From positions 12,598-76,597 of the forward strand of contig CAZTFF010000018.1 in NCBI GenBank assembly GCA_964612485.1: a DNA stretch of 64,000 nt, written 5' to 3'. The stretch is from an uncultured Caldilineaceae bacterium. GTDB lineage: Bacteria; Chloroflexota; Anaerolineae; 4572-78; J111. This document shows positions 419 through 6,968 of the stretch, piece by piece; within the stretch, counting starts at the first letter, position 1, and every line of letters begins with the position of its first letter. The notes under the pieces were generated by a model. It made no database searches. It was not told the DNA's origin and saw only the letters and a program-made list of their open reading frames with translations. Position numbers and translations under genes: made by a program.

Positions 419-587
419 GTTTGTTTCCTTTGGGAGAAGGTGAGTATACAACGCTATAGTTAATTTTATTAAATTCCTCTCCTTGTGTCAATGTGTTAGT
501 AGTACTGGGGTCTATCCAAGATTTTAAGACCGACCGTAGTACTGTGTGGAACATGACATAATTTCTGTAGACGAAAAATTCAACTTG

Positions 588-605
588 TGTTATCATACCG
601 TTATG
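588..605 (+). promoter_or_regulatory. Extended -10 promoter (TGtTATCAT) just upstream of ATG 603; possible leaderless start
   Basis: TG at 588-589, TATCAT at 591-596, ATG at 603-605, with no Shine-Dalgarno sequence in between. Confidence 0.3.
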
Positions 606-1403
606 TCGCAATCTCGGAAATCTAACCCCAAAGCTAAATCAGCAAAAAAGGCCGGTACAAAGGCGAACCGCCGCCAGCCGGTGTTTGTCATCACCTTCGT
701 TTTGATGGCCTTTCTGGCCGTCTGGTTTGGCGTTGATTTGTTCAGGCCGGCAGAACAACCGGTCATCAGAATTCCCCAACCCACATCGCTGGTTTCCGCC
801 GAGGGTCAAGCGGCGACTAGGGATGAAGTCGCTGCGTCCCAACCGGCCATTGATCCCAGCCAACCCCTGGTGGGGATTGTGGCCGGCCACAAAGGGTATG
901 ATCCCGGCGCGGTTTGCGACGATGGTTTAACCGAAGCCGAGGTCAATTATACCGTGGCCGAAGAAGTGGTTGATCTGTTAAGACGGCGCGGTATTGCCGC
1001 CGATTTGTTAGATGAATATGATGATCGCCTGACGGATTATCAGGCCAATGCGCTGGTCAGCGTGCATGCCGATAGCTGTAATATTCCGGGCGCGACCGGC
1101 TTTAAAGTGGCCCGCGTAACCAACAGCGCTATCCCGGAAGATGAAGATAGACTGGTGGCCTGCATCAATCAGGAATACGCTAATTATACCGGCTTGCCGC
1201 AGCATCCCGCCAGCATCACCGATAATATGACCAATTACCACGCTTTTAACGAAATCCATCCTTCAACGCCGGGCGCGATCATTGAAACAGGTTTTCTGCT
1301 GGATGATCGATTTTTGCTGGAATCCCGCCCCAAAGTGGTGGCCCGAGGCATTGCCGCCGGGATCATTTGCTTTTTGGAAGGCGGCTCTTCAACCGGAGAT
1401 TGA
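603..1403 (+). CDS. N-acetylmuramoyl-L-alanine amidase (Amidase_3 family) with an N-terminal membrane anchor
   Basis: ORF 546..1403. Motifs VGIVAGHKGYDPGA, EAEVN, VSVHADS and ETGFL are typical of AmiA/B/C-type amidases. It has a basic N-terminus and the TM helix FVITFVLMAFLAVWFGV. I prefer ATG 603 over GTG 546 as the start. Confidence 0.85.
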   Translation: MSQSRKSNPKAKSAKKAGTKANRRQPVFVITFVLMAFLAVWFGVDLFRPAEQPVIRIPQPTSLVSAEGQAATRDEVAASQPAIDPSQPLVGIVAGHKGYDPGAVCDDGLTEAEVNYTVAEEVVDLLRRRGIAADLLDEYDDRLTDYQANALVSVHADSCNIPGATGFKVARVTNSAIPEDEDRLVACINQEYANYTGLPQHPASITDNMTNYHAFNEIHPSTPGAIIETGFLLDDRFLLESRPKVVARGIAAGIICFLEGGSSTGD

Positions 1404-1463
1404 CCATCCTCAAAACCCCTGATATAATTGGGGAGTGCGATTCTCCTCTGGAGGCAGGAAATT

Positions 1464-2081
1464 ATGAAAAGTATGAGTTGCCCCTCTTGCGGCGCCCCGC
1501 TGGATATTGATAACCGTTTTGTCAAAGTTGTGACCTGTGATTTTTGCAATCAGGTGATGCTGCTGCACGACTCCGGCCTTGATCCTACCGGCCAAACCGC
1601 CAAATTAACCGAACTGCCTTCCCCGTTGTATATTGGCGCCACCGGCCAGATATTCGGCAAACCATTTGAAGTGATGGGCCGCTTGCGCTACCAATACGAT
1701 GCGGGGTTGTGGGACGAATGGTTTGTGATGTTTGATAAGGATCGCCCCGGCTGGCTGCAAGAAGACGAGGGCGAATACATCCTCTTTCACAAAGAAACCT
1801 TAACCTCGCCCGTGCCGTCGTTTGACGAGGTGGCCGTGGGCAGCGTGCTGCCGGTGGGTAAACATCGGATGTTTATCACCGAGAAGGGAACCGCGCAGAT
1901 TGCGGGCGGCGAGGGCCAATTGGCCTTCAACATCCTGCCCGGCCAGGAAGTGCGCTACCTGGACGGCAACAGCGGCGAGCAGCAAGTCAGCATCGAATAT
2001 ACCCAAAACGAAATAGAACTTTCGGTGGGGCGGGCCGTTCCCCGCGATCAGTTGGTGGTAGATGAGGAAGCGTATTGGTAA
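1464..2081 (+). CDS. Zinc-ribbon + DUF4178 domain protein (soluble paralog 1)
   Basis: ORF 1428..2081, with ATG 1464 preceded by GGAGG at 1451. CPSCGAPL...CDFCN forms the zinc ribbon. The following GRLRYQYDAGLWDEWFVMFD...GWLQEDEGEY stretch is characteristic of DUF4178. Confidence 0.8.
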   Translation: MKSMSCPSCGAPLDIDNRFVKVVTCDFCNQVMLLHDSGLDPTGQTAKLTELPSPLYIGATGQIFGKPFEVMGRLRYQYDAGLWDEWFVMFDKDRPGWLQEDEGEYILFHKETLTSPVPSFDEVAVGSVLPVGKHRMFITEKGTAQIAGGEGQLAFNILPGQEVRYLDGNSGEQQVSIEYTQNEIELSVGRAVPRDQLVVDEEAYW

Positions 2082-3260
2082 ATGGACGATTTTAATCCGC
2101 AAGACGCATTGCAAAAAGGTATCCGGGCGGCGCGGCGCGGGCATAAAGAACCGGCGCAGGCGCTGCTCACTCAGGTAGTCCAGGCCGAACCCAACAATGA
2201 GGAAGCCTGGTTGTGGCTGGCGCGGGTGGTTGACGATCCCCTGCAAAAAGCCGAATGTTTGCAGCGGGTGATAGCCCTTAATCCCGGTAATAAATGGGCG
2301 GCGGAACAGTTAAATGCCCTGCAAAGCGGTTCTGCGCCCGCTGCCGGAGCCGCACCGCCCCCGGTGCCGCCGCAAGCGCCCGGCCCCTCGGAGATGAAAT
2401 TGGAAACGCTCAGTTGCCCTAATTGTGGCGGTTCGGTTGAACTCCAGGGCGGGGCCGATATTCAGACGGTGGTGTGCAGCTACTGTGGCAGCGTGTTGGA
2501 TCTTACGCCGGAACAGGCGGCGGTTATCGGCCAAACCGATCCCAAAGTCAAACCGGTCAAACCCATTGAGCTGGGGATGGAAGGCACGTTTGAAGGCAAG
2601 TTGCATCAGGTCGTCGGCTGGGTGCGGTACCAGGGCCGGGACGAGGAAGAAACCTGGGATTGGGATGAATGGCTGCTGGTTTCGGCGGATGGAGAGTATC
2701 GCTGGCTCACCTACGATTCTGAGCAGGGGTTTCATCTCTACAAAAAAATCACGCCCCGTGAGCCGTTTGACCCCAGAACGGCCACCTCTATCAAAATACC
2801 CGGCGGCGTGGCCCGCGTGGTAGAACGAGGCCGGGCGCGCATTGTGGCCCTGGCCGGCGAGTTGACCTGGCGCGGCAAAATTGGCGATGAGATCCAATAT
2901 ATCGATGCCAAACGGGGCCGGCAGCCCTACAGCATCGAATACAGCCGCGAAGAGATTGAGCTATTGGAAGGCCACCAGCTCAACGAGAGCCAGGTGTGGA
3001 AAGCCTTTGGCCGCGAAGATTTACAGCAGCAGGCCCGCGCCCAAGCCTCGCAGCGGCGGGTGGAGTTAAAGCAGATTCAGCGAGATCACGCCCGCTCCAG
3101 CCGCAGAATTTATATGATTTTAGCCATTATTGTGATTGTCTTTATTTTTCTAGTGTGCGTCTGTGGCAGTTGTTCGTCAACCGGTGTCTTTGGCCCCTCG
3201 GTCCGGTCCGGGAGTGTGTCCGGACCCTCAACCGGCGGTGGCTTTAATTTTGGTAAATAA
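2082..3260 (+). CDS. TPR + zinc-ribbon + DUF4178 protein with a C-terminal TM helix and Gly-rich tail (paralog 2)
   Basis: The ATG abuts the previous stop (TAAATG). The N-terminal TPR-like region reads EPNNEEAWLWLARVVDDPLQKAECLQRVIALNPGN. It continues with CPNCGG..CSYCG, then WDWDEWLL (DUF4178), the TM helix IYMILAIIVIVFIFLVCVCG, and the tail SGSVSGPSTGGGFNFGK. Confidence 0.8.
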   Translation: MDDFNPQDALQKGIRAARRGHKEPAQALLTQVVQAEPNNEEAWLWLARVVDDPLQKAECLQRVIALNPGNKWAAEQLNALQSGSAPAAGAAPPPVPPQAPGPSEMKLETLSCPNCGGSVELQGGADIQTVVCSYCGSVLDLTPEQAAVIGQTDPKVKPVKPIELGMEGTFEGKLHQVVGWVRYQGRDEEETWDWDEWLLVSADGEYRWLTYDSEQGFHLYKKITPREPFDPRTATSIKIPGGVARVVERGRARIVALAGELTWRGKIGDEIQYIDAKRGRQPYSIEYSREEIELLEGHQLNESQVWKAFGREDLQQQARAQASQRRVELKQIQRDHARSSRRIYMILAIIVIVFIFLVCVCGSCSSTGVFGPSVRSGSVSGPSTGGGFNFGK

Positions 3261-3293
3261 CCTTCCAAATTTTTATAAAAGGAGAAAATTCCG

Positions 3294-3596
3294 ATGAAAT
3301 TCAAAGTATTCGTTGCGTTTGTGATCGCTTCGCTGTTACCCACGGGTATTGCGCTGGCTCAGGATGCGCCGCCTTCGGCGCGGTATGATTTGGCCTGGCA
3401 GCCGTTTGTTTCAACCATTTTATATGGTTTAGTTGGCATTTTGCTGGCGGTGTTAGGCTATTTTGTGTTTGATCGTATTTTGGGTCTGGACCTAAAACGC
3501 GAGTTGGTTGAAGATCAAAACCAGGCGCTGGGTATTATGCTGGCCGGCGTCTTTATTGGCATTTCCATTGTGGTGGGTGCCGTGATGTTGTCATAA
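3294..3596 (+). CDS. DUF350 (YjfL-like) small membrane protein
   Basis: 100 aa with three hydrophobic segments and the central motif DLKRELVEDQNQALGIMLAGVFIGISIVVG, which is typical of DUF350. Confidence 0.75.
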   Translation: MKFKVFVAFVIASLLPTGIALAQDAPPSARYDLAWQPFVSTILYGLVGILLAVLGYFVFDRILGLDLKRELVEDQNQALGIMLAGVFIGISIVVGAVMLS

Positions 3597-3605
3597 CCGG
3601 AATTT

Positions 3606-3791
3606 ATGTCATCAAAAACTGTGACGTGGCTGGCTGTCTTTTTTATCATTTGCCTGCTGTCCTGTAATTTTGTGCTGTGTGGGTTTCTTTCTTACTGGGG
3701 AACCGGCATCGCGCAGATGAGTTCTCATTCCCTCCGCACGGGCAGCGTGAGCGGCCCGATAATTGGCGGCGGGCCGAATTCGGGCAAATAA
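3606..3791 (+). CDS. 61-aa single-TM mini-protein sharing the Gly-rich C-terminal tail of the 2082..3260 product
   Basis: The Cys-rich TM helix WLAVFFIICLLSCNFVLCGF is followed by SLRTGSVSGPIIGGGPNSGK. The paralog 2 tail SVRSGSVSGPSTGGGFNFGK matches this at 13 of 20 positions. The stop at 3789-3791 lies 2 nt before the next ATG. Confidence 0.55.
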   Translation: MSSKTVTWLAVFFIICLLSCNFVLCGFLSYWGTGIAQMSSHSLRTGSVSGPIIGGGPNSGK

Positions 3792-3793
3792 TT

Positions 3794-5389
3794 ATGGATG
3801 AACGCCAGCTCAATGAAATATTGCAAAACGGAATAAAAGCCGCCCGGCGCGGCCATAAGGAACCTGCGAGGAAACTGCTCTCGCAGGTTGTTCAGGTTGA
3901 CGCCAACAACGAGGAAGCCTGGTTGTGGCTCTCGCGGGTGGCAGATGATCCGCAGCAGCAGGCGCAGTGTTTGCAACAAGTGTTGCAGGTCAACCCCGAT
4001 AATCGATGGGCCGCCGGGCAACTGGCCGAATTGCAATCCCCACCCCCGGTTTCGGGGCAGGAGGCACCGCCGCCCCTGCCCGCCGAGCCGGCAGCACCGG
4101 CACAGCCCTCGGCAGATGAAAGTAGCAGCAAATACAAGCGCATTGAACCCAAATCATCCGAATTAAAACTGGAAACCCTCTCATGCCCCCACTGCGGCGG
4201 CACGGTTGATCTTAGAAGCGGGGCCGAGGCCAAAACCATGGTCTGCAATCACTGCGGCAGCGTACTTGATCTAACCAGCGAGCAGGCCGCCGTGATCGGC
4301 CAGATGAACAAGCGCGTTCGCCCGACGATGCCCATTAAACCGGGCATGACCGGCACCTTTGAAAGCGAAACTCACCAGGTAATCGGCTGGATCCGTTACG
4401 AAGGATGGGATGATGAGGAGCGATGGCGTTGGGATGAGTGGCTGCTGGTGTCGGCCGGCGGCAAATATCGCTGGTTGAGTTATGATGCTGAGACGGGCTT
4501 CATTCTCAACGAAAAAATCCAGCCCCAGGCTCCGTTTGACCCCTACCGCGCTTCCTCAATCCAGGTGCCGGGCGGAACGGCCCAGGTGACCGAGCGTTCG
4601 CCGGCCAAGGTGCTGGCCTTTGACGGCGAGTTAACCTGGCAGTGTAACGTTGGAGATCAGTTTCACTATTTTGATGCCCAACGCGGCAGCATTCCTTACA
4701 GCGTGGAGTACAGCAAAGATGAGATAGAGGTCTACCAGGGGCAGCCGCTGGCGGATGTTGAGGTCTGGCAGGCCTTTGGCCGCGAGGATTTGGTCAAAAA
4801 AGCCGGTGAAGTATCTACCTGGAACAGCGCTTACCGGGTGCTGGCCCTCTTTTGCTTGCTGTTGGTACTTTTGAGCTGCTCCGGCGCGCTATTTACCGCG
4901 TTCACCGGCCAACAGGTGGCCCAAGAAGAGTTCCAGATGAAGCAGGGGCTGGAAGTAAAAACCATGGGGCCGATCACCCTGCCCAAATCGGATGCCGTCT
5001 ACCGGATTTCTTTAGAGTCTGGCGGCTTGCCGGTAAATACCTGGGCGGTGGTGGATGTCTCGGCTCGTGATAGCGAGGGGAACGAAGCGTATCTTTTCTC
5101 CGGCGAGTTCTGGGACGAAGAGGGGCGGGACAGCGACGGTTACTGGCACGAAAACGACCTCAACGCCGATTATCTTTTCAAACTCGAAGAGGCCGGTGAT
5201 TATTACCTGAATGTTTCGATGGAAGATGCCACGGTCACATCAATGCCGCTGACCGTCACTGTCGAACGCGGCGTATGGCTGACGCGCTACTTTATCATTT
5301 TCCTGGTGATCGCCGCCGTGCTGGCTTTTGTATTTTTTAGCCTGAGTAACCGGCGGCTGGTCGGTAGCTCACTGTTGAAATCCCAATAA
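3794..5389 (+). CDS. TPR + zinc-ribbon + DUF4178 protein with a C-terminal TM-ectodomain-TM module (paralog 3)
   Basis: Track ORF 3677..5389. I prefer ATG 3794 because MDERQLNEILQNGIKAARRGHKEPARKLL aligns with the N-terminus of paralog 2 (MDDFNPQDALQKGIRAARRGHKEPAQALL). It contains CPHCGG..CNHCG and WRWDEWLL, plus two TM helices flanking a ~170-aa region. Confidence 0.8.
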   Translation: MDERQLNEILQNGIKAARRGHKEPARKLLSQVVQVDANNEEAWLWLSRVADDPQQQAQCLQQVLQVNPDNRWAAGQLAELQSPPPVSGQEAPPPLPAEPAAPAQPSADESSSKYKRIEPKSSELKLETLSCPHCGGTVDLRSGAEAKTMVCNHCGSVLDLTSEQAAVIGQMNKRVRPTMPIKPGMTGTFESETHQVIGWIRYEGWDDEERWRWDEWLLVSAGGKYRWLSYDAETGFILNEKIQPQAPFDPYRASSIQVPGGTAQVTERSPAKVLAFDGELTWQCNVGDQFHYFDAQRGSIPYSVEYSKDEIEVYQGQPLADVEVWQAFGREDLVKKAGEVSTWNSAYRVLALFCLLLVLLSCSGALFTAFTGQQVAQEEFQMKQGLEVKTMGPITLPKSDAVYRISLESGGLPVNTWAVVDVSARDSEGNEAYLFSGEFWDEEGRDSDGYWHENDLNADYLFKLEEAGDYYLNVSMEDATVTSMPLTVTVERGVWLTRYFIIFLVIAAVLAFVFFSLSNRRLVGSSLLKSQ

Positions 5390-5392
5390 TCA

Positions 5393-6907
5393 ATGCAACT
5401 TACAACCCGCCATTCTACCTCTCTTTTGGTTACCGTTTTTATCATTGCCATCTGCGGCCTGGTGTACGAGCTGATCATCGGCACCCTTTCCTCTTATTTA
5501 TTTGGCAATACCGTTACCCATTTTTCAATCACCATAGGTTTGTTTCTGAGCGCGATGGGCATCGGCTCGTTTGCCTCGCGGCGGATCAACGATTCGTTGT
5601 TGGGTTGGTTCATCGGCGTGGAACTATCGGTGGGGCTGGTGGGGGGATTCTCGGCGGCACTGCTGTACGCGGTGTTCGCCACCACCGATGTGTACCACGT
5701 AGCCATGGTGGTGCTGATCCTCATCATAGGCAGTTTGATCGGTATGGAAATCCCCCTGCTGACCCGTTTGCTGGGCGGGTGGGACAATATCAAAGATACG
5801 CTGGCCAACGTGCTGGCCTTTGATTATATTGGCGCGCTGATTGCCTCGGTGCTGTTTCCGCTGGTTTTACTGCCGGAACTGGGCCTGCTAAAAACCGCGT
5901 TTGCCACGGGCATTCTCAATGTTTTGGTGGTGGCGCTGAACATCTGGATCTTTCGGGACCGGCTGTCCCGCTGGCGTGGGCTTTCTCTCGCAACCGGCGG
6001 CATTGCCCTGCTGTTGCTGGGGGGCGCGGTCTGGTCTAACCTGTTGACCTCCGTGTTTGAGCAGCAACTCTACAAGGATGAGATCATCTACAGCCGCCAG
6101 ACGCCCTACCAGCGCATCATTATGACCCGTTGGGCCGACGATGTGCGCCTGTTTTTAGACGGCAACCTGCAATTCAGCTCGCGCGATGAATACCGTTATC
6201 ACGAACCGCTGGTGCATCCGGCCATGTCGCTTACCCGCTCCCGGGAGTCGGTGCTGGTGTTGGGCGGGGGCGATGGGCTGGTGGCCCGTGAGGTTTTTAA
6301 GTATGATGATGTGCAGCAGCTTGTGCTGGTTGACATCGACCCGGCCATGACCGAATTGGCCCTTACCCACCCGGCCTTGCTCGACATCAACGAGGATTCG
6401 CTCAGCGATCCGCGTGTGGAGATACTCAATCAGGATGCCTACACCTACCTGGCCGACACCGGCGAGCTGTTCGGCGTCATCATCATAGATTTGCCTGATC
6501 CCAACAACGAAAGTTTGGGCAAACTCTACAGCCGCGAATTCTACAAACTGGTACACCGCCACCTGGCCGGGGGCGGTGTCATTGTGACCCAGGCTACTTC
6601 ACCCTACTACGCCCGCGAAACGTACTGGTCCATTGCCCATACGATGGAATCGGTGGGGCTGCAAACTTGGCCGTATCATATGTATATTCCCTCCTTTGGC
6701 GATTGGGGCTTTATATTGGCCGCCGGCCACGAACTGGACCCGGCCAAGTTTTTACCCAGGGTTCCCATGCGCTATCTTGATGCCGATGTCTTTCAATCGA
6801 GCCTGGTTTTTGATGATGACATTGCCGAGATCGACACCGAAGTAAACACCCTGGATAACCAGATCATTCTGACCTATTACGAGCAAGCCTGGCGGCGGTG
6901 GCGGTGA
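5393..6907 (+). CDS. Polyamine aminopropyltransferase (spermidine-synthase fold) fused behind a polytopic membrane domain
   Basis: About 200 aa of TM helices come first. They are followed by YQRIIM...DGNLQFSSRDEYRYHEPLVHPAM, VLVLGGGDGLVAREV, IIIDLPDPNN and LYSREFY, which are spermidine/spermine synthase signatures. Confidence 0.85.
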   Translation: MQLTTRHSTSLLVTVFIIAICGLVYELIIGTLSSYLFGNTVTHFSITIGLFLSAMGIGSFASRRINDSLLGWFIGVELSVGLVGGFSAALLYAVFATTDVYHVAMVVLILIIGSLIGMEIPLLTRLLGGWDNIKDTLANVLAFDYIGALIASVLFPLVLLPELGLLKTAFATGILNVLVVALNIWIFRDRLSRWRGLSLATGGIALLLLGGAVWSNLLTSVFEQQLYKDEIIYSRQTPYQRIIMTRWADDVRLFLDGNLQFSSRDEYRYHEPLVHPAMSLTRSRESVLVLGGGDGLVAREVFKYDDVQQLVLVDIDPAMTELALTHPALLDINEDSLSDPRVEILNQDAYTYLADTGELFGVIIIDLPDPNNESLGKLYSREFYKLVHRHLAGGGVIVTQATSPYYARETYWSIAHTMESVGLQTWPYHMYIPSFGDWGFILAAGHELDPAKFLPRVPMRYLDADVFQSSLVFDDDIAEIDTEVNTLDNQIILTYYEQAWRRWR

Positions 6908-6914
6908 TTTGGTA

Positions 6915-6968
6915 GAGTGAGTGAAGAATGGTATCACTTCTCACTCGTCACTCGTCACTCCTTGTCAC
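6915..6968. repeat. Hairpin built from heptamer words (GAGTGAG / TCACTCG x3) at a convergent gene junction
   Basis: gagtgagtgaag (6915-6926) pairs with cttctcactc (6937-6946). This is followed by tandem gtcactc gtcactc and cttgtcac. It lies between stop 6907 (+) and stop 6965 (-). Confidence 0.6.

Follow-up and report, generated by a model that had tools for sequence, protein, structure and literature searches.

Clusters combining AdoMetDC, a fusion resembling MFS and spermidine synthase proteins (MFS-SpdSyn-like) and DUF350 were reportedly described in 2019 by Li, Kurihara, Kim, Liang and Michael. Bacteria with both the fusion and AdoMetDC are said to lack spermidine, the fusion reportedly cannot rescue E. 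coli cells mutated in speE, and the authors are said to have concluded that it probably aminopropylates something other than putrescine; that work is not known to discuss DUF4178, a mini-protein or topology. The locus described here lies in a 64-kb window, by which we mean the whole stretch of DNA that was analyzed, and has the same fusion family and the same DUF350 neighbor, but AdoMetDC is missing: tblastn with two class-1b queries from sister loci did not find it in the window, and an adjacent AdoMetDC is missing in the nearest relatives as well.

Operons that unite a 7TM-spermidine-synthase with DUF350 and DUF4178 and are linked to PspA or Band-7 were described by Ravi, Anantharaman, Aravind, Gennaro et al. 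(Ravi et al. 2024; PMC11237479; mSystems 9:e00847-23), with Shewanella AAN56744-AAN56747 as an example; the sections of that paper drawn on here also raise "aminopropylation of other substrates" and a link to membrane dynamics. The example operon and the window have in common a 7TM synthase-like protein, DUF350 (YjfL) and the beta-rich DUF4178, whereas the CesT/Tir-PspA dyad, the Ctha_1186 lipoprotein and the RHH regulator of the former are missing in the window, where neither PspA nor Band-7 occurs. The window in turn has three DUF4178 genes, two with TPR-like heads and transmembrane (TM) anchors and one with an ectodomain, and a lysine-tailed mini-protein, of which those sections make no mention. 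They agree with what the initial annotation had given as background, namely that DUF350 and DUF4178, neither with an established biochemical function, recur beside polyamine enzymes and PspA-type envelope-stress genes. The gene association is thus not new, having already been described with its function unsolved. We consider it very likely that the locus is a conserved module of this known kind, of which it is a variant with TPR-headed, membrane-anchored DUF4178 paralogs and without PspA, Band-7 or AdoMetDC.

The six genes, g1 to g6, are ORFs on the + strand between 1464 and 6907, and an ORF check of the window found them co-directional and nearly end to end as first annotated, with the junctions TAAATG (2079-2084), TAA-TT-ATG (3789-3796) and TAA-TCA-ATG (5387-5395). 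Since the gaps from g1 to g6 are, in order, only 0, 33, 9, 2 and 3 nt and one strong promoter-like site lies upstream, we conclude that the genes form one operon (Table 1). That site is the best of 12 in a scan for which 4.6 were expected, and the g1 ATG is preceded, at a distance of about 10 nt, by a GGAGG ribosome-binding site. Searches with Pfam and NCBIfam models recovered DUF4178, DUF350 and spermidine-synthase domains; the HMMs back the earlier domain calls for g1 and g5 (DUF4178), for DUF350 and for the synthase, whereas the call of DUF4178 in g2 and those of the TPR heads stayed below threshold.

Table 1. Features of the operon and their positions in the window
Feature	Position	Strand	Evidence
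Promoter-like site, TTGACC-17 nt-TATAAT with TG extension	1400..1428	+	consensus match only, 11/12 matches
g1, soluble, 205 aa, zinc ribbon + DUF4178	1464..2081	+	Pfam PF13785, 9.7e-15, 55 bits
g1 four-Cys zinc ribbon (C6, C9, C25, C28)	1479..1547	+	
g2, 392-aa accessory paralog	2082..3260	+	homology to g5 and g1; tail similar to g4
g2 zinc ribbon (C112-C135)	2415..2486	+	
g2 TM helix (residues 343-361)	3108..3164	+	
g2 C-terminal tail, SVRSGSVSGPSTGGGFNFGK-COOH	3198..3257	+	
g3, 100-aa DUF350 (YjfL-type) membrane protein	3294..3596	+	Pfam PF03994, 2.4e-13
g4, 61-aa single-pass mini-protein	3606..3791	+	alignment across two phyla
g4 TM helix (residues 8-31)	3627..3698	+	
g4 tail, SLRTGSVSGPIIGGGPNSGK-COOH	3729..3788	+	
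g5, 531-aa core long DUF4178 protein	3794..5389	+	Pfam, 8.2e-14, 52 bits
g5 zinc ribbon (C131, C134, C151, C154)	4184..4255	+	
g5 conserved WxWDEW	4424..4447	+	
g5 conserved GELTW	4625..4639	+	
g5 TM helix (residues 347-370)	4832..4903	+	
g5 ectodomain (residues ~373-492)	4910..5269	+	
g5 conserved acidic/aromatic loop, EFWDEEGRDSDGYWHEND	5105..5158	+	
g5 TM helix (residues 499-517)	5288..5344	+	
g6, whole gene	5393..6907	+	
g6 N-terminal domain (residues 1-216), seven TM helices	5393..6040	+	AlphaFold pLDDT 90.4
g6 C-terminal aminopropyltransferase (PABS) domain (residues 217-504)	6041..6907	+	Pfam PF01564, 1.2e-36
g6 motif GGGDG	6263..6277	+	
g6 motif D-L-P-D-P	6488..6502	+	

Among the DUF4178 paralogs, g1 (domain at residues 57-193) has neither a TM segment nor a signal peptide and is therefore predicted to be cytoplasmic. 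Its gene heads the cluster in every related locus, and its orthologs in Anaerolineae and Rubricoccaceae are exactly 205 aa long at 45-81% identity. The long protein g5, with 66 full-length or partial relatives, carries a TPR-like head (residues 1-83) and DUF4178 (residues 182-319), and a confident AlphaFold model (pLDDT 88, pTM 0.70) backs the TM-ectodomain-TM architecture first proposed for it. The ectodomain is a nine-strand beta-sandwich that is Cys-free in 54/54 homologs and has only generic beta-sandwich matches in Foldseek (GOLD, TNF-like, CBM). In g2, a TPR-like head (residues 1-83) precedes a putative DUF4178 domain (about residues 163-313) that Pfam did not match at E<0.01 and that is assigned by homology only: 55% identity to g5 over 346 aa (g5 residues 1-337; E 3e-131) and 30% to g1 (E 1e-21 to 1e-23). 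The TPR heads of g2 and g5 score about 20-22 bits in Pfam against cut-offs of 23.5-25, and several of their homologs carry recorded Pfam TPR families. The initial annotation had noticed a tail common to g2 and the 61-aa gene and had taken this no further; similarity (E 1e-7) and an alignment confirm the shared tail. Judged from these sequences, g2 is in effect the N-terminal two thirds of g5 joined to a g4-type TM helix and tail. Such fusions occur in 8 further 90%-identity clusters (P0035, P0041-43, P0045, P0047, P0054; P0044 is g2 itself), and g2 is a conserved fusion of a DUF4178 protein to the mini-protein tail. It is not present in the closest relatives, L001 and L006, and this third DUF4178 gene is an accessory paralog. 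A hetero-oligomeric scaffold of DUF4178 paralogs around the synthase, as initially suggested, is plausible.

The most informative part of the locus is the mini-protein gene g4. Positions R44, G46, S47, G50, P51, G54-G56, G60 and K61 are invariant, giving across phyla the signature R-x-G-S-x-x-G-P...GGG...GK with an invariant terminal Lys; the N-termini are Arg-rich, and neither Pfam nor NCBIfam has a model for this family. In 49/54 metagenome loci, the interval from DUF4178 to the synthase contains a TM mini-ORF that ends in K, compared with 0/54 on the reverse strand and 10/434 random windows (2.3%). With dN/dS of 0.05-0.22 and synonymous sites near saturation, the mini-protein is under purifying selection. 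Its neighbor g3 scores 50.7 bits for DUF350 (Pfam cut-off 26) and has a signal-peptide-like N-terminus (residues 1-23) followed by TM helices at residues 38-59 and 78-99; in related loci the DUF350 gene adjoins the synthase.

Thirteen loci from the phyla Chloroflexota and Bacteroidota (Anaerolineae, Caldilineaceae, Anaerolineales and Rubricoccaceae/Rubrivirga) share the operon gene set, as do 6 further, more divergent loci. In a metagenome sample of 44 loci whose synthases are 44-58% identical and whose upstream flank covers at least 3 kb, DUF4178 is found in 39, AdoMetDC in 28 (directly beside the synthase), Band-7 in 26 and DUF350 in 23. The adjacency is therefore conserved outside this genome and far beyond chance, and the earlier proposal of one functional unit, in which DUF350 and several DUF4178 proteins accompany a membrane-fused aminopropyltransferase, is supported. 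The variants DUF350-Band-7-DUF4178 (L005) and DUF4178-DUF2617-DUF350-synthase (L037) contain the same blocks and a K-terminal mini-protein, but they include Band-7 or DUF2617, which the window lacks, and their DUF4178 proteins have no TPR heads. We take the DUF2617 variant to resemble the M. tuberculosis Rv2597-Rv2601 region.

The enzyme itself, g6, matches Spermine_synth at 126 bits, NCBIfam NF002956 at 650 bits (cut-off 472) and NF037959, "fused MFS/spermidine synthase", at 45 bits (cut-off 40). It keeps every motif that specifies use of decarboxylated S-adenosylmethionine (dcAdoMet) and amine deprotonation, with GGGDG, D366 and D369-P370 invariant in 78 sequences; the catalytic domain has 0-1 Cys in ~288 aa. 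For residues 229-457 the best solved-structure sequence matches (E 1e-32 to 7e-36) are 7xif, T. thermophilus SpeE (1uir/3anx) and thermospermine synthase ACL5 (6bq2), which share GGG(D/E)G and D-L-[TP]-D-P with g6 but are soluble, cytoplasmic enzymes without a TM domain, acting on free polyamines or agmatine. The TM domain is shaped like one MFS-half-like six-helix bundle plus one extra helix, and its best Foldseek matches are mostly MFS transporters (TMq 0.47-0.52 at weak E of 0.1-1). Its polar residues Y25, E119, P121, D144 and N176 are invariant in both homolog sets, and E26, E77 and Y145 do not vary in the closer set and reach 90-99% conservation among the metagenome homologs. A precedent for this design, a ~215-aa seven-TM domain followed by a spermidine-synthase-like domain, is the fungal N-terminal histidine methyltransferase NHMT (AN4663; Batth et al. 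2023, Nat Commun 14:4202, PMC10349129), which acts on the ends of secreted proteins and is dependent on its TM domain for activity. NHMT is eukaryotic and ER-resident whereas g6 is bacterial; the catalytic domains alone align (hhalign E 3e-4, probability 39%), and no homology was detected between the TM domains. In NHMT an Ile replaces the acid of GxG(D/E)G and the methyl group comes from SAM, whereas GGGDG is retained in g6 and points to dcAdoMet and the transfer of an aminopropyl group.

The numbers of K+R per loop in 120 homologs of g6 are 2.1 / 0.0 / 2.4 / 0.0 / 2.6 / 0.04 / 3.2, an alternation that recurs in 77 further homologs and predicts seven TM helices with the N-terminus inside. The likeness to an MFS half agrees, the N-terminus and the loop after TM6 being cytoplasmic in such a half. 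Because charge bias and fold assign the N-terminus, like the loops that follow TM2, TM4 and TM6, to the cytoplasm, the catalytic domain would, on balance, lie on the outside. In g2 a basic stretch comes before the TM helix leading to the tail, and the g2 and g4 tails and the g5 ectodomain would lie outside the membrane like the catalytic domain. The Arg-rich N-termini of the mini-proteins and the near absence of Cys from the catalytic domain and the g5 ectodomain agree with this placement. No experimental topology was found for any member of the g6 family, and we know of no extracytoplasmic dcAdoMet-dependent enzyme in bacteria. Classical spermidine synthesis makes little sense at the predicted outer face, and g6 is probably not a classical spermidine synthase.

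Given the mini-protein family, the g2 fusion, the charge-bias topology and the MFS-half-like fold, we tentatively favor, at somewhat short of an even chance, a module for aminopropylation that faces outward rather than a spermidine synthase of the cytoplasm. Four parts recur in the widespread membrane module of which the operon is a variant: the 7-TM aminopropyltransferase, DUF350, at least two DUF4178 proteins (one soluble, one membrane-anchored) and the Lys-ended mini-protein. As a dcAdoMet-dependent, MFS-half-like 7-TM fusion, g6 would hold its catalytic domain at the outer face of the cytoplasmic membrane together with the g5 ectodomain and the Gly-rich, Lys-ended tails of g2 and g4. Produced in the cytoplasm, presumably by the dedicated AdoMetDC beside the synthase in most sister loci, dcAdoMet would pass via the acidic-lined TM domain to the outward-facing active site, where an extracytoplasmic amine, and not cytoplasmic putrescine, would be aminopropylated. 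The leading candidate acceptor, itself an unlikely one, is the invariant lysine at the C-terminus of the mini-protein and g2, through its epsilon-amine; its modification would yield a cationic tail that resembles a polyamine and is anchored in the membrane. Against this acceptor speaks the second Asp of D-x-x-D-P, which normally holds a distal amine and would, with a C-terminal Lys, face the peptide backbone or carboxylate. The cytoplasmic zinc-ribbon, DUF4178 and TPR parts and DUF350 would form a regulatory or scaffolding side.

The same topology evidence would also fit an outward-facing g6 that acts on a non-protein envelope amine, which we regard as unlikely. The acceptor could then be phosphatidylethanolamine or another lipid head group, a wall polymer, peptidoglycan or an exported polyamine, and the effect would be an adjustment of surface charge by analogy with EptA, ArnT, MprF and Dlt. 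The mini-protein would then be a structural or regulatory partner and not a substrate, for example a ligand of DUF350 or of the acidic loop of the g5 ectodomain, whose conserved acidic and aromatic residues could bind a basic tail. Indeed, in L005 the mini-protein accompanies DUF350, Band-7 and DUF4178 with no synthase within 8 kb, so that it may be a component of the DUF4178/DUF350 side and not what the enzyme modifies; the g6 catalytic domain is moreover closest to enzymes that take long or varied amines. However, in L090 the mini-protein is kept directly upstream of the synthase while DUF4178 was not found within about 6.7 kb upstream, genes for lipid or wall modification are not conserved in the examined clusters, and the sequence names no candidate small-molecule acceptor.

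We also think it improbable that g6 is a polyamine sensor, or a spermidine or polyamine synthase that is tethered to the membrane and faces the cytoplasm, with the DUF4178 proteins and DUF350 as a localizing or regulating scaffold. NCBIfam labels the g6 family as the equivalog "polyamine aminopropyltransferase", the catalytic motifs are all intact, dcAdoMet is a cytoplasmic metabolite, and the W/E-rich DUF4178 motifs (WxWDEW, GELTW, xEY) would suit a cation or polyamine pocket. Yet the charges around the seven TM helices follow the positive-inside rule very cleanly and put the domain outside, this reading leaves the lysine-tailed mini-protein and the ectodomain without a role, and organisms bearing the fusion reportedly lack spermidine and the fusion reportedly fails to complement speE. 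The initial description of the module as polyamine-making is not supported as worded, given the charge bias of both homolog sets and the AdoMetDC undetected in the window.

In Braun's lipoprotein (Lpp) a C-terminal Lys is linked to peptidoglycan, and the invariant C-terminal Lys of the mini-protein and g2, on a flexible Gly-rich spacer predicted to lie outside, might likewise serve covalent wall attachment in a membrane-wall tether monitored by DUF4178 and DUF350, with the synthase only loosely related. We consider this very improbable: neither an L,D-transpeptidase nor a sortase-like gene is conserved in the examined clusters, and the tight linkage to an amine-alkylating enzyme and AdoMetDC would go unexplained. 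Finally, fortuitous adjacency or a spurious g4, for which speak the generally high rate of false calls among short ORFs and the mere 3 relatives returned by a single-sequence search, is ruled out for practical purposes by synteny across phyla, the conserved motif, the mini-ORF controls and the dN/dS values.

Beyond the initial annotation, the analysis adds the mini-protein family, the fusion of its tail in g2 and the predicted outside placement of the catalytic domain, the tails and the ectodomain. Because related modules are wired elsewhere to SPFH/Band-7 or PspA, the outward-facing aminopropylation module would be one for envelope maintenance or stress rather than for bulk polyamine supply.

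The six genes g1 to g6 appear from their arrangement to be laid out as a single operon. All six plus-strand reading frames were recovered where the initial annotation had placed them, junction strings included, and the gaps between successive genes are 0, 33, 9, 2 and 3 nt. A promoter-like site with a TG extension precedes g1, a GGAGG ribosome-binding site stands between it and the g1 ATG, and the gene next downstream of g6 is convergent. We base the single-operon layout on these four features together. Between the g6 stop and the convergent ORF (6908-6964) there is a run of near-repeats, TCACTTC TCACTCG TCACTCG TCACTCC; a scan of this interval found no terminator-like hairpin. The flanking genes, that is, an upstream amidase gene and, downstream, the convergent ORF of ~87-88 aa without a Pfam match followed by genes for a HAD hydrolase and Fpg, were considered as members of the system and rejected because their adjacency to the cluster is not kept in relatives.

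Coordinates of the operon genes and associated features (window positions unless a comparison locus is named)
Feature	Position	Strand	Remark
Amidase_3, membrane-anchored N-acetylmuramoyl-L-alanine amidase	546-1403	+	stops 60 nt before g1
Promoter-like TTGACC-17-TATAAT + TG extension	1400-1428		11/12 matches, best site in region
g1, soluble DUF4178 protein	1464-2081	+	
g2, DUF4178-TM-tail protein	2082-3260	+	
g3, DUF350 protein	3294-3596	+	
g4, 61-aa mini-protein	3606-3791	+	
g5, long DUF4178 protein	3794-5389	+	
Predicted g5 ectodomain loop EFWDEEGRDSDGYWHEND	5105-5158	+	residues 438-455; family consensus EFWDExGxDSxGxWxExD
g6, fused synthase	5393-6907	+	
Two lysine-tailed proteins, locus L011	7908-8375, 10587-11027		
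Two lysine-tailed proteins, locus L013	7836-8231, 10561-10962		

Profile searches of all six products bear out the domain content first proposed, and the initial description of the genes was accurate apart from two details, which concern g2 and the TPR heads. DUF4178 (PF13785) was found in g1 (55.4 bits) and g5 (52.4 bits against the Pfam cut-off of 25), DUF350 (PF03994) in g3 (50.7 bits against a cut-off of 26, covering model positions 51-133 of 133, one half) and Spermine_synth in g6 (126 bits), which as a whole protein also matches NCBIfam NF002956 (PRK03612), the membrane-fused "polyamine aminopropyltransferase" family, with 650.3 bits (cut-off 472; model positions 15-521 of 522). The third supposed DUF4178 protein, g2, gave no match to the Pfam DUF4178 model at E<0.01; it is counted here through its homology to g5 (55% identity over 346 residues, across the DUF4178 domain) and g1 (~30% identity) and not through a profile. 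The TPR heads that had been assigned to g2 and g5 emerged solely as matches below threshold, and sequence comparison confirmed the similarity of the Gly-rich C-terminal tails of g2 and g4.

The operon very probably represents a conserved module of an already known kind. Li and colleagues reportedly described in 2019 thousands of bacterial genomes in which a class-1b AdoMetDC is found together with DUF350 and an MFS-SpdSyn-like fusion, and they are said to have found bacteria with such combinations but without spermidine, and a member of the fusion family that fails to complement an E. coli speE mutant. In those clusters the AdoMetDC reportedly lies beside the fusion, whereas tblastn with two class-1b AdoMetDC queries gave no match in the 64-kb window. 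A second description, by Ravi et al. (2024; PMC11237479), concerns operons in which DUF350 (YjfL) is accompanied by a Ctha_1186-type lipoprotein, a beta-rich DUF4178 protein with a predicted intracellular location and a CesT/Tir-PspA dyad, which is replaced in variants by Band-7, DUF2617 or DUF4247; what these systems monitor, the authors propose, is polyamines or "aminopropylation of other substrates." Those operons and the window have in common a 7TM-synthase, DUF350 and DUF4178 in one operon, whereas the CesT/Tir-PspA dyad is absent from the window operon. We found no PspA-like ORF in the window by phmmer, a weak test with an approximate E. coli PspA sequence as query, and by eye no lipobox-type N-terminus among the six products. 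Thus, in view of these two descriptions, the gene association is not new, and the initial annotation was right that DUF350 and DUF4178 recur next to polyamine enzymes and PspA-type envelope-stress genes. The system has already been described by comparative genomics, and the window holds a variant without PspA, Band-7 and AdoMetDC, in which the DUF4178 proteins are elaborated.

Neighbourhood statistics also show that the gene adjacency, first noted in this genome, is kept beyond it in Chloroflexota, Bacteroidota and metagenome loci. The nearest relatives of g5 and g6 come from metagenome-assembled genomes of Anaerolineae and other Chloroflexota (an NCBI contig of 99.6 kb encodes a recorded protein with the identical sequence to g6), and the gene set was found again in Anaerolineae, Caldilineaceae, Anaerolineales and Bacteroidota of the Rubricoccaceae/Rubrivirga group. 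The commonest order is g1-type DUF4178, mini-protein, long DUF4178, DUF350 and synthase, then often AdoMetDC (PF02675), with an SPFH/Band-7 gene added in those Bacteroidota loci whose downstream sequence is long enough. The g1-type protein is exactly 205 aa long in four aligned orthologs, and more divergent synthases, of 53-57% identity, stand in the same gene context. A scan of genome contigs with the g1 alignment, with very specific peptide patterns, gave only 10 loci, and the statistics were therefore taken from a metagenome scan with the synthase alignment (80 loci, 44-58% identity). In 44 of the metagenome loci the sequence extends 3 kb or more upstream of the synthase; among these, tblastn detected DUF4178 near the synthase in 39, AdoMetDC in 28, Band-7 in 26 and DUF350 in 23, counts that are lower bounds for short, fast-evolving proteins.

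The window and its two closest relatives (loci L001 and L006) depart from the common order in that DUF350 and the mini-protein have moved ahead of the long DUF4178 gene and AdoMetDC is not adjacent to the cluster; it is clustered with the fusion in L003, L004, L008-L012, L014 and L016-L018. The g2 gene is an extra paralog that L001 and L006 lack, and its fusion architecture recurs in at least eight other 90%-identity clusters. Two Rubricoccaceae/Rubrivirga loci, L011 and L013, each carry a second TPR-DUF4178 paralog upstream of g1 and two lysine-tailed proteins, which end ...SYGGGPSYGK and ...SSGGGYSGGK and in which the TM helix is followed by a long helical linker of high charge; DUF4178 and tail genes have thus been duplicated there independently of the duplication that produced g2. 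In L019 (8541-9042), and also in L020, the synthase is directly followed by an insertion that comprises a 94-aa ORF and a gene for a HicB-like antitoxin, and ~1.6 kb beyond this insertion L019 has a DUF2617 and DUF350 pair on the opposite strand, which places two DUF350-type sub-modules side by side in one genome. In L003, an 847-kb contig, genes for a DNA methylase and a DDE transposase (IS) lie at 3828-6329, just upstream of the cluster, a hint that the surroundings of the module may have been mobile or rearranged.

We regard g6 as probably not a classical spermidine synthase. Its catalytic half is most like 7xif, T. thermophilus SpeE (1uir/3anx) and thermospermine synthase, with the motifs GGGDG at residues 291-295 and DLPDP at residues 366-370, and GGGDG, D366 and D369-P370 are invariant in 78 sequences. 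The Asp of GGGDG separates users of decarboxylated S-adenosylmethionine (dcAdoMet) from SAM-dependent methyltransferases (PMC10349129). The N-terminal 216 residues form seven helices (AlphaFold pLDDT 90) whose best Foldseek matches are for the most part transporters of the MFS fold, of which g6 has only one six-helix half (TMq ~0.5, with weak E values of 0.1-1), and g6 scores 45.2 bits against the cut-off of 40 for NF037959, "fused MFS/spermidine synthase." Within the helices, Y25, E119, P121, D144 and N176 are invariant, and in the metagenome set E26, E77 and Y145 reach 90-99% conservation. Of the earlier interpretation as a membrane-localised polyamine-making or polyamine-sensing module, a conserved functional unit centred on the synthase is upheld, and "polyamine-making" is its least likely part.

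A similar architecture occurs in the fungal enzyme NHMT (AN4663), in which a seven-TM domain (residues 1-215) precedes a spermidine-synthase-like domain; NHMT is ER-resident, methylates the N-terminal histidine of secreted LPMOs, loses activity on removal of the TM domain and has Ile in place of the acid of GxG(D/E)G (PMC10349129). In g6, too, a TM domain of ~216 aa is followed by the catalytic domain. Unlike NHMT with its Ile, g6 and all 77 homologs keep the GGGDG Asp, and for this reason we do not class g6 as an NHMT-type member. When the g6 family profile was compared by hhalign with the AN4663 protein, rebuilt from supplementary DNA with a few residues uncertain, only the catalytic domains aligned (E 3e-4, probability 39%) and the TM domains gave no alignment. 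An "E-x-I-P-L-L" string common to g6 and NHMT sits in different helices and was dismissed as chance. NHMT is thus a working analogy for g6 and not a demonstrated relative; it does show that nature has 7TM proteins whose SpdS-like domain acts on protein termini on the far side of a membrane.

The membrane orientation of g6 can be predicted from the charges of its loops. Across 120 homologs the mean number of Lys and Arg residues, from the N-terminus to the TM6-TM7 loop, is 2.1, 0.0, 2.4, 0.0, 2.6, 0.04 and 3.2, and in 77 further homologs (44-58% identity) loops 1-2 to 6-7 have 0.01, 1.96, 0.03, 3.44, 0.49 and 2.22. Judged by these values, the pattern is that of a textbook positive-inside protein with its N-terminus in and seven crossings. 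The loop charges agree with the MFS fold, which has its N-terminus and post-TM6 loop in the cytoplasm. With the N-terminus in and seven crossings, the chain would emerge from TM7 at the outer face, which should make the whole aminopropyltransferase domain extracytoplasmic, and on this prediction we lean towards an outward-facing catalytic domain. The tail of g2 is predicted to lie outside as well, since a strongly basic segment and a single TM helix separate it from the cytoplasmic zinc-ribbon/DUF4178 part. Mini-protein N-termini are rich in Arg and Lys, and the g5 ectodomain is flanked by two TM helices. The distribution of Cys is a weak but consistent sign of an outward catalytic domain and ectodomain, with 0-1 Cys in the ~288 residues of the g6 catalytic domain, none in the g5 ectodomain of 54/54 homologs and the four zinc-ribbon Cys in cytoplasmic parts. 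A literature search found no published experimental topology for any member of the synthase family.

The mini-protein encoded by g4 is, to judge from its orthologs in L001, L006 and L007, a genuine gene and not a stray ORF (dN/dS 0.05-0.22, with synonymous sites near saturation). Alignment of Chloroflexota and Rubricoccaceae orthologs with the g2 tail reveals the invariant pattern R-x-G-S-x-x-G-P...G-G-G-x-x-x-G-K-COOH, and at least one copy of such a tailed protein occurs in all scanned loci of L001-L014 except L005, which has instead a 47-aa mini-protein ending ...YHK. Mini-proteins of more distant loci end ...GGGPGSGK, ...GGTGSGK or ...GYRGGK, and those of a large soil and freshwater metagenome clade have an Arg-rich N-terminus, a TM helix and the sequence YRGWS...NVPKSVRDNPGSYRSVY..YHHYTGGK-COOH. 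Among 54 metagenome loci with a DUF4178 gene at most 2.5 kb upstream of the synthase, 49 have a Lys-terminal small TM ORF between the two genes, compared with 0/54 when the opposite strand is tested and 10/434 for equally large random windows. Pfam models matched none of ten representative mini-proteins and NCBIfam models none of the six of these that were searched, and the family appears to be unmodelled in curated libraries. Since phmmer with g4 against 1.84 billion representatives returned just three true relatives and one spurious 1038-aa match, the family becomes visible through synteny and the tail motif.

The mini-protein has several gene partners. It is fused to a DUF4178 protein in g2 and its orthologs, and in L037 it occurs in a DUF4178-DUF2617-DUF350-synthase variant. 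In the high-GC locus L090 (6291-9099) its ORF runs into the beginning of the synthase ORF, behind which an 8TM double-DUF350 protein is encoded; the 6.7 kb upstream gave no DUF4178 match, and from its gene content the locus resembles a module pared down to mini-protein, synthase and DUF350. L005 (6532-10087) encodes a 133-aa DUF350 protein, Band-7, a 647-aa protein with two zinc-ribbon/DUF4178 units and a TM-ectodomain-TM part, and the 47-aa mini-protein, which ends ...GGSSGGSSRVYHK, with no synthase within 8 kb. This gene set shows that the synthase is not the mini-protein's only companion and that DUF4178 and DUF350 accompany it too.

The DUF4178 proteins themselves offer few functional clues. 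The soluble g1 consists of a four-Cys zinc ribbon and a DUF4178 domain, and g5 has, in order, a TPR-like head, a zinc ribbon/DUF4178 part, a TM helix, an ectodomain and a second TM helix. An AlphaFold model of g5 residues 120-531 (pLDDT 88) predicts the ectodomain to be a nine-strand beta-sandwich, for which Foldseek returned only generic beta-sandwiches (GOLD, with a target-normalised TM of ~0.6, and TNF-like, CBM and Cry-toxin domains), and we therefore make no functional call for DUF4178 or the ectodomain; a sequence search of solved structures with g5 found nothing meaningful. The conserved positions of DUF4178 are aromatic and acidic (WxWDEW, GELTW, xEY), and the tabulated g5 loop, also acidic and aromatic, resembles a Ca2+- or polyamine-binding loop; by their composition, these motifs and the loop would suit cation binding. 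We rejected a LysW-like amino-group carrier, as the Zn_ribbon_LysW matches are weak (E 0.0015-0.005, sub-threshold) and reflect a generic zinc ribbon only. TPRs of the PEX5 and Hsp70 type bind C-terminal peptides; such binding of the tails was likewise rejected, since the predictions put the TPR heads in the cytoplasm and the tails on the other side of the membrane.

Based on the dcAdoMet-type enzyme, its predicted outward orientation, the presence of AdoMetDC in most sister loci, the acidic TM domain and the Lys-tailed partner, we propose that the module aminopropylates an extracytoplasmic amine. The dedicated AdoMetDC of most sister loci would feed the enzyme, and the transporter-like domain of g6, lined with conserved acidic residues, would deliver the dcAdoMet. 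The leading candidate acceptor, tentative as it is, would be the terminal Lys of the mini-protein, which a flexible Gly-rich spacer would place on the same membrane side as the enzyme and which is the sole universally conserved chemical handle of the peptide. One or more aminopropyl units could be added to this Lys, with g2 representing such a tail fused to DUF4178, which would give a polyamine-like cation that is anchored in the membrane and exposed on its outer face. The long DUF4178 protein might then read the state of the tail through its acidic ectodomain and relay it to DUF350/SPFH/PspA-type membrane-stress machinery, the DUF4178 proteins and DUF350 forming a regulatory or scaffold side that is tied to Band-7/PspA systems elsewhere. 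That all these parts hold jointly (an extracytoplasmic g6 that receives dcAdoMet by way of its own transporter-like domain, an aminopropylated mini-protein Lys, and a state read by g5 and relayed to the stress machinery), we consider improbable.

Four points count against the proposal. The gene set of L005 suggests that the mini-protein may partner DUF4178 and DUF350 rather than the enzyme, and a C-terminal carboxylate is not what the second Asp of D-x-x-D-P would be expected to face. In addition, we know of no extracytoplasmic dcAdoMet chemistry in bacteria, and AdoMetDC was not found in the window. One alternative, which shares the predicted topology, is an outward-facing enzyme whose substrates are amines of lipids or of the wall, the tail being its partner and not its substrate; we hold this to be possible, if rather unlikely. 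Another is a cytoplasm-facing polyamine synthase or sensor, which the loop charges and the reported failure of a fusion to complement speE make doubtful. An Lpp-like wall tether, for which the Lys-ended, membrane-anchored tail might speak, is very improbable in view of the association with a dcAdoMet-type enzyme.

Extracytoplasmic aminopropylation, with the tail Lys as candidate acceptor, bears on a wide class of proteins, since membrane-fused "spermidine synthases" carry a polyamine-enzyme annotation in thousands of genomes, including the speE (Rv2601) region of M. tuberculosis, and the sole biochemical study of fused synthases known to us is reported to have found no spermidine and no complementation. 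Three leads on their substrate follow from the present analysis, that is, the predicted outward-facing catalytic domain, the co-encoded Lys-ending mini-protein (49/54 loci) that is absent from Pfam and NCBIfam, and g2, a natural fusion tying the tail to the DUF4178 proteins. These leads sharpen a vague "polyamine/envelope stress" association into the testable question of what fused synthases modify. Should the lysine-tail idea be wrong, the default annotation would still be corrected and the real core gene set of the module defined. If the joint reading were true, bacteria would have a post-translational modification that is new, dcAdoMet would for the first time be seen to drive a reaction outside the cytoplasm, and the thousands of AdoMetDC/fusion clusters that Li and colleagues are said to have described would gain their missing substrate.
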